Origin: Blochmannia endosymbiont of Camponotus modoc
GTDB lineage: Bacteria > Pseudomonadota > Gammaproteobacteria > Enterobacterales > Enterobacteriaceae
Direction of reading: 5' to 3'
DNA: 32,000 nucleotides
Assembly (NCBI RefSeq): GCF_023585785.1
Contig: NZ_CP097765.1
Coordinates: 570,001-602,000, forward strand
The position numbers and the translations under genes are program-made. How positions within the stretch are numbered: the first letter of the stretch is position 1; each line of letters starts with the position of its first letter. This document shows positions 1 to 1,808 of this stretch, one piece after another. The notes under the pieces are model-generated. The model made no database searches. It had not been told where the DNA came from and was given only the letters and a program-made list of their open reading frames with translations.

Positions 1-152
1 CTCAATACGGGGTGGAATCAATACGTAAATTCGGAGTATTACGAGGTATCTGGATGACATGTATTCGTATATTGCAATGCCATCCTTTAACTGTAAATAA
101 CAATGAAAATTTTAAATATTATTCACATTCACATATTCAGGACATAATCAAC
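1..152 (+). CDS. yidD: yidD (membrane protein insertion efficiency factor), C-terminal fragment entering the window; it reads in frame into yidC without a stop codon
   Basis: Translation from nt 3 gives [35 protein letters not shown].... This matches the conserved C-terminal core of E. coli YidD (..[30 protein letters not shown]..). I read every codon from 3 to 152 and found no stop before the yidC ATG at 153. Confidence 0.6.
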
Positions 153-1808
153 ATGGATTCGCAACGTAATTTCTTTGTGATAGCTTTTTTAATTATGTCG
201 TTTATACTATGGCAAATATGGCAAACAGAGTATCATCAAAGCACTAATATCCCAAAAATAAATATACATGAAAATACATATCCACTAATTCGTTCTGAAG
301 ATAATGATGAAATAAAATATATACATCATAAAAGTCATGTGATTACAGTAAAAACAGATGTGTTGTTACTCAAAATAAATACTTATGGAGGAGATATCGA
401 AGAAGCATATCTCGTGAATTATTTAGAGAATTTACATTCTACAGAACCTTTTCATCTATTAAGTACATCACAAGCATTTACATATCAAACAAACATCGGA
501 CTAATAAACGAAAATATACCGGGTCAATCATATAATAATAAAAAATTTATATACACTACCGCAACTGATAAAAGTATGTACACCATACCAAAAAATGAAG
601 ATAAATTACAATTAACTTTAACACATTACGCTTCCGATGGGATTACATATACTAAGAATTATATTTTTAACAGAAATGACTACTCCATATATGTATTCTA
701 TACCGTAAATAATATGAGCACTTATCCATTAAAAATTAAGTTGTTTGGTAATATAGTACAATCCGAACATTATCCCAAATTACATAATAACAGCGATAAC
801 GGAGATAATTTTCCTTTATACTCTTATCGAGGACCAGCATATTCTACTGATAAAAAAAAATATCAAAAATACAGCTTTAAAGATATAAAAAATATGAATT
901 TAAACATTAATACCTCTAAAGGTTGGATAGCAATGTCACAAAAATATTTTGCGACAGCTTGGATACCCCTTACTCAAGGAAATAATACATTTTATACTAC
1001 CTACCATGATAATAATAGTGCTTCTATAGGTTTTCAATCTGATTCAATATATCTCCCGATAGGAGAAACAGGTAAATTTCAATCTATATTATGGATAGGC
1101 CCAAAAATTCAAGAAAAGATGAAAGCAATAGCTCCAAATTTAGATCTATTAGTTGACTACGGATGGTTGTGGTTTATTTCTCAACCATTGTTTCAATTAT
1201 TGAGTTTTATTTACAGTTACATAGAAAATTGGGGTATATCTATTATTATTATAACATTAATTATACGTCTAACCATGTATCCTTTAACTAAAGCACAATA
1301 TACTTCTATGGCAAAAATACGCATGCTACAACCTAAATTATCTATAATACAAGAAGAATATAAACACGATAAATATCAATACCATCAAAAAACTATAGAA
1401 TTATATAAGTTAGAAAAAGTGAATCCATTGGGGGGATGCCTACCTTTATTAATCCAAATGCCAATATTCTTAGCTTTATATTATATGTTATCAGGTTCTG
1501 TAGAATTAAGGCATGCTGAATTTGCTTTCTGGATTCATGATTTATCTGCTCAGGATCCTTATTACATACTACCGATATTAATGGGAATTACTATGTTTTT
1601 TATACAAAAAATGTCGCCTACTACAATTACTGATGCGATACAGAAAAAAATGATGACTATCATGTTAATCATTTTTACTATATTTTTTTTATGGTTCCCA
1701 TCTGGTTTAGTATTATATTATATAGTAAGCAATATAATCACCATTATTCAACAATACATGATTTATCGAGAACTAGAAAAACAAGGATTACACAATAAAA
1801 ATAACTAA
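153..1808 (+). CDS. yidC: YidC membrane protein insertase
   Basis: The ORF track frame is 12..1808. The internal ATG at 153 gives MDSQRNFFVIAFLIMSFILWQIWQ, colinear with the E. coli YidC N-terminus MDSQRNLLVIALLFVSF. An AGGA lies 10 nt upstream. The conserved C-terminal TM core is present (NPLGGCLPLLIQMPIFLALY, PSGLVLYY). Confidence 0.95.
   Translation: MDSQRNFFVIAFLIMSFILWQIWQTEYHQSTNIPKINIHENTYPLIRSEDNDEIKYIHHKSHVITVKTDVLLLKINTYGGDIEEAYLVNYLENLHSTEPFHLLSTSQAFTYQTNIGLINENIPGQSYNNKKFIYTTATDKSMYTIPKNEDKLQLTLTHYASDGITYTKNYIFNRNDYSIYVFYTVNNMSTYPLKIKLFGNIVQSEHYPKLHNNSDNGDNFPLYSYRGPAYSTDKKKYQKYSFKDIKNMNLNINTSKGWIAMSQKYFATAWIPLTQGNNTFYTTYHDNNSASIGFQSDSIYLPIGETGKFQSILWIGPKIQEKMKAIAPNLDLLVDYGWLWFISQPLFQLLSFIYSYIENWGISIIIITLIIRLTMYPLTKAQYTSMAKIRMLQPKLSIIQEEYKHDKYQYHQKTIELYKLEKVNPLGGCLPLLIQMPIFLALYYMLSGSVELRHAEFAFWIHDLSAQDPYYILPILMGITMFFIQKMSPTTITDAIQKKMMTIMLIIFTIFFLWFPSGLVLYYIVSNIITIIQQYMIYRELEKQGLHNKNN

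Follow-up and report, generated by a model that had tools for sequence, protein, structure and literature searches.

A stop-free frame joins yidD to yidC

The window analysed here, a stretch of 32,000 nucleotides (nt) from the Blochmannia endosymbiont of Camponotus modoc (contig NZ_CP097765.1, positions 570,001 to 602,000, forward strand), opens inside yidD, and the frame of that gene runs on into yidC, which encodes a membrane protein insertase. On the + strand, frame 3 is open from nt 3 through a TAA at 1806-1808, with zero stops between; the initial annotation had followed it as far as the yidC ATG, and that part of its description was correct. The window thus holds the 3' part of a real gene-level yidD-yidC fusion, with an open reading frame (ORF) of 639 codons.

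All parts of the fused gene lie on the + strand. The first 29 codons in the window (3..89) encode the YidD C-terminal core, the preceding 38 codons being upstream of the window. This stretch matched Pfam PF01809, the membrane protein insertion efficiency factor profile, with 30.5 bits, above the Pfam gathering score of 27 used as the cut-off, and is assigned to YidD by profile, though the window holds only profile positions 31-60 of 67. A linker of 21 codons (90..152), also free of stops, separates the YidD core from the YidC methionine and is positionally homologous to the YidD C-terminal tail plus the former yidD-yidC spacer. Within it, a Shine-Dalgarno-like AGGA (139..142), spelled in the codons CAG-GAC, lies 10 nt ahead of the yidC ATG, as had been noted before. 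That ATG (153..155), the ancestral yidC start, is now internal and encodes Met89 of a 639-residue protein. The YidC insertase part (551 codons plus TAA, 153..1808) begins MDSQRNFF and contains a first transmembrane segment (TM1), a periplasmic P1 domain (approximately nt 342-1199) and a 60KD_IMP core (approximately nt 1230-1769). PF14849 (3.8e-73) and PF02096 (2.1e-58) each matched over the full profile, and the combination of TM1, P1 (PF14849) and a five-TM core (PF02096) is that of a Gram-negative-type YidC. This part is 64% identical to YidC of B. floridanus.

The upstream part of yidD is intact

The 601-residue translation from the window is 100% identical to a deposited 639-residue protein of the Camponotus modoc Blochmannia (P0001), named "membrane protein insertase YidC". 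The 38 N-terminal residues that lie outside the window complete a normal YidD, beginning MVSPFVLIEKSIIWLIYGYQISISPILGHHCRFQKTCS..., and P0001 carries the YidD motifs HHCRFQKTCSQY...QCHPL. In the full-length YidD the motif set ISP..G..CRF..TCSQY....CHP is complete, and residues C31, C37, C64, H65 and P66 are invariant in the alignment that contains P0001. In L004, one of two Logan read assemblies covering the locus, the yidD ATG is at position 1089 and overlaps rnpA (763-1110) by 22 nt; the other assembly, L005, likewise has an intact yidD ATG overlapping rnpA. A yidD start overlapping the 3' end of rnpA was also found in loci L006-L008 and in E. coli, and the ATG is embedded in GAAAAATTATGG, a sequence conserved from E. 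coli to Blochmannia. No recognisable Shine-Dalgarno motif was found upstream of the yidD ATG. Between the yidD ATG and the yidC stop, the frame was uninterrupted in L004, L005, L006, L007, L008 and L013, and likewise over the part contained in the window.

The initial annotation had pointed out that the fusion would fall if yidD were degraded upstream or if a stop codon had been lost by sequencing error; neither proved to be the case, and the fusion is supported at the gene level. An artefact of sequencing or assembly, with a true genome that carries a stop between yidD and yidC, is conceivable in that AT-rich, homopolymer-bearing endosymbiont genomes are generally prone to indel errors, and has no other positive support. 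Against it, the junction DNA was identical to that of the window in both L004 and L005, which were assembled from different SRA runs and encode a protein 99% identical to that of the window. Two more clusters named for the C. modoc host were 99-100% identical and fused, with the same three Pfam domains, so that the junction is present in three genome-length contigs of about 790 kb. More than 25 other Blochmannia protein clusters share the architecture, and the window linker contains no A/T run of at least 5 nt. Given the independent assemblies and the recurrence in relatives, we rejected this explanation as almost certainly wrong. It is also very improbable that the YidD-like stretch is what remains of a decaying pseudogene, in frame by chance, beside a YidC that alone is functional. 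The window by itself covers no more of the YidD core than its last 29 codons, and endosymbiont genomes are rich in eroding genes, which would fit such a remnant. However, the full-length YidD retains its conserved ATG and motifs, the YidD core is conserved among fused lineages like YidC TM1 (identity 0.71 versus 0.72), and lineages with separate genes keep an intact yidD of 71-77 codons. Of the usual marks of a pseudogene (a lost start, stops or frameshifts, relaxed conservation), none was found in the yidD part. This reading too was rejected, on the intact start, the absence of stops and the conserved core.

The next gene in the cluster, mnmE (trmE), is a 470-residue ORF on the + strand (1884..3296), in keeping with the conserved order rpmH-rnpA-yidD-yidC-mnmE; mnmE homologues with TrmE_N and MnmE_helical Pfam matches also lie beside the fusion in L006-L008. 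At the end of yidC there are two stops in a row, TAA TAA (window 1806-1811). A scan of nt 1-2000 found fewer promoter-like sites than in shuffled sequences, and hence no support for an internal promoter, and found no terminator.

Fused and separate genes among insect symbionts

In a protein search with Pfam profiles, PF01809, PF14849 and PF02096 occurred together in P0001-P0026, P0030 (B. vafra) and P0062 (B. obliquus), and nine Blochmannia clusters were YidC-only (P0027-P0029 and P0031-P0035, including B. floridanus). A majority of the Blochmannia lineages in this sample are therefore fused, and the comparison of relatives that had been proposed to assess the junction revealed a fused frame conserved across many of them. 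The DNA of separate cases was read for four (B. floridanus, P0031, P0035 and P0034), each with an intact, stand-alone yidD of 71-77 codons. Beyond Blochmannia, Pantoea sp. Nvir (P0042) and Sodalis-allied symbionts (P0036-P0038 and P0048) also had fused proteins.

In a neighbour-joining tree of the YidC part, these non-Blochmannia fused proteins were scattered among unfused relatives, which suggests that the Pantoea and Sodalis-allied fusions are of separate origin. In the same tree, lineages with separate genes occupied at least three positions among the fused Blochmannia. Because of these positions, and because B. obliquus, which is fused, diverges first among the lineages of Blochmannia in a published multigene tree, we favour a fused Blochmannia ancestor, with several later splits.

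Two further searches were unusable for counting fusions. A search of a representative library with the 106-residue junction gave six weak matches and no fused protein; a profile search built on aligned N-termini of fused proteins returned stand-alone YidD and three tandem-YidD proteins only, and missed fused proteins already known, so that it says nothing of fusion prevalence. The tandem proteins (P0123, P0127 and P0129, 204-227 residues, from ENA/Logan contigs outside the window) carry two complete YidD domains in tandem, joined by a hydrophobic, TM-like segment, a different elaboration of YidD from the fusion with YidC. In a Sodalis metagenome-assembled genome, P0038 (634 residues, fused) and P0087 (547 residues, YidC-only) both have a longest contig of 327,837 nt. 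They may be one locus called with two start codons, in which case annotation pipelines disagree on such fusions.

Small indels distinguish the two states

In E. coli, yidD ends in TAA and is followed after 2 nt by the yidC ATG; 260 nt separate the two starts, and yidC is in frame +2. This arrangement (a stop, 2 nt and an ATG, in frame +2) is ancestral. Because the two genes are out of frame, loss of the stop alone cannot fuse them, and a net +1 (mod 3) indel is needed. The initial annotation had suggested the loss of nothing beyond the stop codon and a very short spacer; it was right that the distance from CHPL to the ATG is similar (63 nt versus 59 nt in E. coli), but the frame difference means that this loss is not sufficient.

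The same arithmetic held elsewhere. Start-to-start offsets were 260, 263 or 269 nt in separate Blochmannia, all in frame +2, and 261 (Pantoea sp. Nvir), 264 (modoc, ocreatus, vafra and P0016) or 270 nt (obliquus) in fused genes. The Pantoea sp. Nvir junction is the E. coli junction plus 1 nt, in an A-run within CAAAAAAAC. After the added base, the former stop becomes T-TAA-CG in the reading frame and the junction translates as ...YQRTLT-MDSQ; the E. coli sequence upstream of yidC, read in the yidC frame, gives the same YQRTLT. One added base in E. coli would thus recreate the fusion. Within Blochmannia, P0016 (fused, 63 nt) and P0035 (separate, 62 nt) are one A apart, in an A-run, and P0031 (separate) is 4 nt shorter in a region of A/T runs. 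Junction runs include A9 in P0035, T8 in P0031, and A7-A9 in P0016, B. vafer and B. obliquus. Read in the yidC frame, the spacers of separate lineages resemble the fused linker, as in P0031 (FFLKYVDIKDVLK-M) and the fused P0018 (FYFFKNVNIKDVLN-M).

On this evidence the fusion would have arisen when a small indel in the tail of yidD restored the frame, after which the old stop would be read out of frame, and the Blochmannia state would since have flipped back to separate several times through indels in A/T homopolymers.

The 35-nt spacer of B. floridanus (L001 3963-4000), read in the yidC frame, gives ...YNVEDIRN-M, which resembles the fused linker end HIQDIIN-M. It looks like the footprint of a formerly fused frame, or of a conserved ribosome-binding site.

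The internal start signals are retained

Segment identities were calculated as mean pairwise values over 25 fused Blochmannia proteins. They were 0.71 for the YidD core, 0.31 for the linker except its last five codons, 0.59 for those five codons, 0.72 for the YidC N-terminal tail with TM1, and 0.84 for the TM2-6 core. The values of 0.71 and 0.31 argue that YidD is conserved as a working domain and that the linker is not. Among fused genes the linker is 20, 21 or 23 codons long.

Met89, the YidC start, did not vary in any of the 50 proteins aligned, of which 29 are fused. AGGA was present 10-11 nt before the yidC ATG in eight of nine Blochmannia junctions, whether fused or separate, and was kept in four lineages where the region is a non-coding spacer (GAGGAT, AAGGAT, AAGGAC). 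In fused genes it is spelled by CAG-GAC, CAG-GAT, AAG-GAT or AGG-AAT. Among the genes of the window, CAG accounts for 15% of Gln codons, GAC for 14% of Asp, AAG for about 15% of its codon family and AGG for 4% of Arg, and AGGA occurs at 0.0044 per coding nucleotide. The pattern is that of nucleotide-level conservation of a putative ribosome-binding site. With both the internal ATG and AGGA kept in fused and separate lineages, separate initiation of YidC, as first envisaged, is indeed plausible.

An AlphaFold2 model was obtained with a 50-sequence alignment. Residues 64-98 of P0001, which cover the linker, had predicted local distance difference test (pLDDT) values below 50, consistent with a disordered, flexible tether. 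The P1 domain was beta-rich (pLDDT 84-94), and the TM core helical with moderate confidence.

Other features of the window

Several features elsewhere in the window are recorded here. The GC skew changes sign within 12000-16000, between mnmG (12273-14171, - strand) and metA (15205-16098, + strand), which diverge from an intergenic region of about 1 kb. This region is probably the replication origin. No dnaA lies beside it in the window, and dnaA has been reported missing from Camponotus Blochmannia in published work. Between atpB and mnmG there is a gap of about 670 nt (11604-12272), where E. coli has rsmG and atpI; the gap contains no ORF of at least 60 codons on the - strand and may be an eroded remnant. 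FtsY (19323-20249) is only 308 residues long, and its NCBIfam match starts at residue 38, so that most of the E. coli-type N-terminal acidic domain is missing. It is a second altered membrane-targeting component in this reduced genome.

Predicted products and competing explanations

We propose that the locus is an inherited fusion, of indel origin and with repeated splits in other lineages, that is predicted to yield two products, one a tethered YidD-YidC of 75 kDa and the other a free YidC of 65 kDa; as a whole we think this probable, though well short of assured. Ribosomes starting at yidD would make a YidD-YidC polypeptide with a predicted mass of 75.1 kDa, in which the YidD part would sit on the cytoplasmic face, joined to YidC at the cytoplasmic N-terminus of TM1. 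Initiation at the internal AGGA-N10-ATG would give an ordinary YidC of 64.7 kDa. Because translation of yidD must run into YidC, free YidD is impossible in the C. modoc Blochmannia unless it is cleaved off; all YidD would then be bound to YidC, with YidC possibly in excess. In E. coli, the YidC N-terminus is cytoplasmic, ahead of TM1, and YidD is reportedly (in work by Yu and colleagues from 2011) a peripheral inner-membrane protein of the cytoplasmic face that cross-links to nascent YidC substrates. The topology predicted for the fusion is compatible with this arrangement.

The retained start signals argue for two products. If the full-length 75-kDa protein were instead the only product of a real fusion, the internal ATG and AGGA would be relics, or would be kept for reasons other than initiation. 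In the absence of a stop, ribosomes that start at yidD must in any case enter yidC, the methionine may be kept for structure, and B. obliquus does without a clear AGGA. Nevertheless, AGGA is found at the same distance where the region is non-coding and, in fused lineages, through rare G-ending codons, and the methionine is invariant in 29 of 29 fused proteins while the flanking linker is 31% identical. A yidD start that has no Shine-Dalgarno sequence and relies on the overlap with rnpA would also seem a weak sole source for an essential insertase. We therefore regard a single product as rather unlikely. A more serious competitor, to which we give appreciable weight while still doubting it, is that indel-prone, AT-rich DNA between two genes adjacent in translation produced the fusion as a selectively neutral side effect, which would be silent on any coupling of YidD with YidC. 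This is compatible with the gene-level finding and overlaps our preferred explanation. The repeated flips between fused and separate states, with indels in A/T runs, would be expected from it; all of the fusions found are in host-restricted insect symbionts, which undergo strong drift, and the linker sequence is barely conserved. Yet the fused frame has persisted while linkers diverged to 31% identity, and linker lengths in fused genes differ by multiples of three (20, 21 and 23 codons). At about 28% GC, moreover, some 8% of random codons would be stops (an estimate from base composition), and an unconstrained frame of 21 codons would decay.

A stronger version of the two-product proposal can be entertained only tentatively. 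The locus may be maintained as such, with the internal Shine-Dalgarno sequence and ATG providing free YidC and the yidD start, which has no such sequence and is coupled to rnpA, providing a fixed, YidD-tethered subpopulation; in lineages whose linker has A/T runs, slippage during replication or transcription would toggle or mix the two states. If so, Blochmannia would be a natural titration of YidD-YidC coupling.

A number of points weigh against the explanation that we prefer. The genes are separate in several Blochmannia (floridanus, turneri, P0027-29/32/34, P0031 and P0035), so that the fusion is dispensable and could be selectively neutral, and selection for the tether cannot be strong. 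The tree that underlies the fused ancestor is a neighbour-joining tree of a single protein, without support values. The B. obliquus fusion may be independent, since its 23-residue linker is unlike the others, and it has CAGAGA in place of a clear AGGA. In the AlphaFold2 model the YidD part was helical with only moderate pLDDT (54-70), and the output, which came without inter-domain error, is silent on a YidD-YidC interface. Finally, the fused polypeptide, internal initiation and any benefit of tethering are predictions.

YidD is among the least understood of the conserved parts of bacterial membrane-protein biogenesis and, to our knowledge, direct evidence of a link with YidC comes only from a single study in E. 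coli. The Blochmannia radiation spans roughly 40 million years. A fusion that persists through much of it, and is scattered in other insect symbionts, provides Rosetta-stone-type support for the idea of joint action by YidD and YidC at the TM1 N-terminus, on the cytoplasmic side. The description of the fusion as a natural experiment on their physical coupling thus follows a reasonable logic, but is weakened by the Blochmannia lineages with separate genes, in which the tether is dispensable; as evidence for coupling the fusion is suggestive. Its practical value is as a pointer for biochemists working on YidC and YidD, rather than as a discovery.

Comparison with known systems

The yidD-yidC fusion in Blochmannia is already known, being both annotated and published, and the C. 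modoc case is a further, strain-level instance. Homologues from B. chromaiodes, B. vafra and B. ocreatus bear the UniRef name "Multifunctional fusion protein". Williams & Wernegreen (2010) counted B. floridanus yidC and yidD as one gene "due to fusion in B. pennsylvanicus and B. vafer" (PMC3017870), and a 2015 Blochmannia genome paper also mentions the fusion (PMC4389277). Separate yidD and yidC were reported for B. floridanus and B. turneri in the same papers (PMC3017870, PMC4389277), where the mentions are one-line notes in figure legends, without analysis of the junction, its origin or its expression. What is added here is modest, i.e., the frame arithmetic, the scatter in other insect symbionts, the reversals at A/T runs and the retained start signals.

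E. coli yidD (b4557) and yidC (b3705) have the same gene order as the window, with the yidD ATG in the same GAAAAATTATGG inside the 3' end of rnpA, 59 nt rather than 63 nt between CHPL and the yidC ATG, and the same YidC N-terminus, MDSQRN. They differ in encoding a separate YidD of 85 residues and YidC of 548 residues.

Homopolymer frameshifts in Blochmannia are partly correctable by transcriptional slippage, e.g., in dnaX and dnaG of B. vafer. The likeness to these genes is that the differences between fused and separate yidD-yidC are also in A/T runs, and slippage at this locus in other lineages can be suggested as speculation by analogy. The window linker differs in having no run of at least 5 nt, so that slippage is not expected there.

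The fusions of Pantoea sp. Nvir and the Sodalis-allied symbionts are, like that of the window, single ORFs in host-restricted insect symbionts with the internal methionine kept, but their linker is still a recognisable enterobacterial YidD tail (NPGG.DPVP...). The closest counterparts are the fusions of Blochmannia pennsylvanicus, chromaiodes, vafer and obliquus, which likewise consist of YidD, a linker of about 21 residues and YidC, in the same position, rpmH-rnpA-(yidD-yidC)-mnmE. Compared with proteins named for B. chromaiodes and B. camponoti, the window protein shows 94-95% identity; the figure is 59% for that of B. vafer and 55% for that of B. obliquus. It does not differ in kind from any of these Blochmannia fusions.

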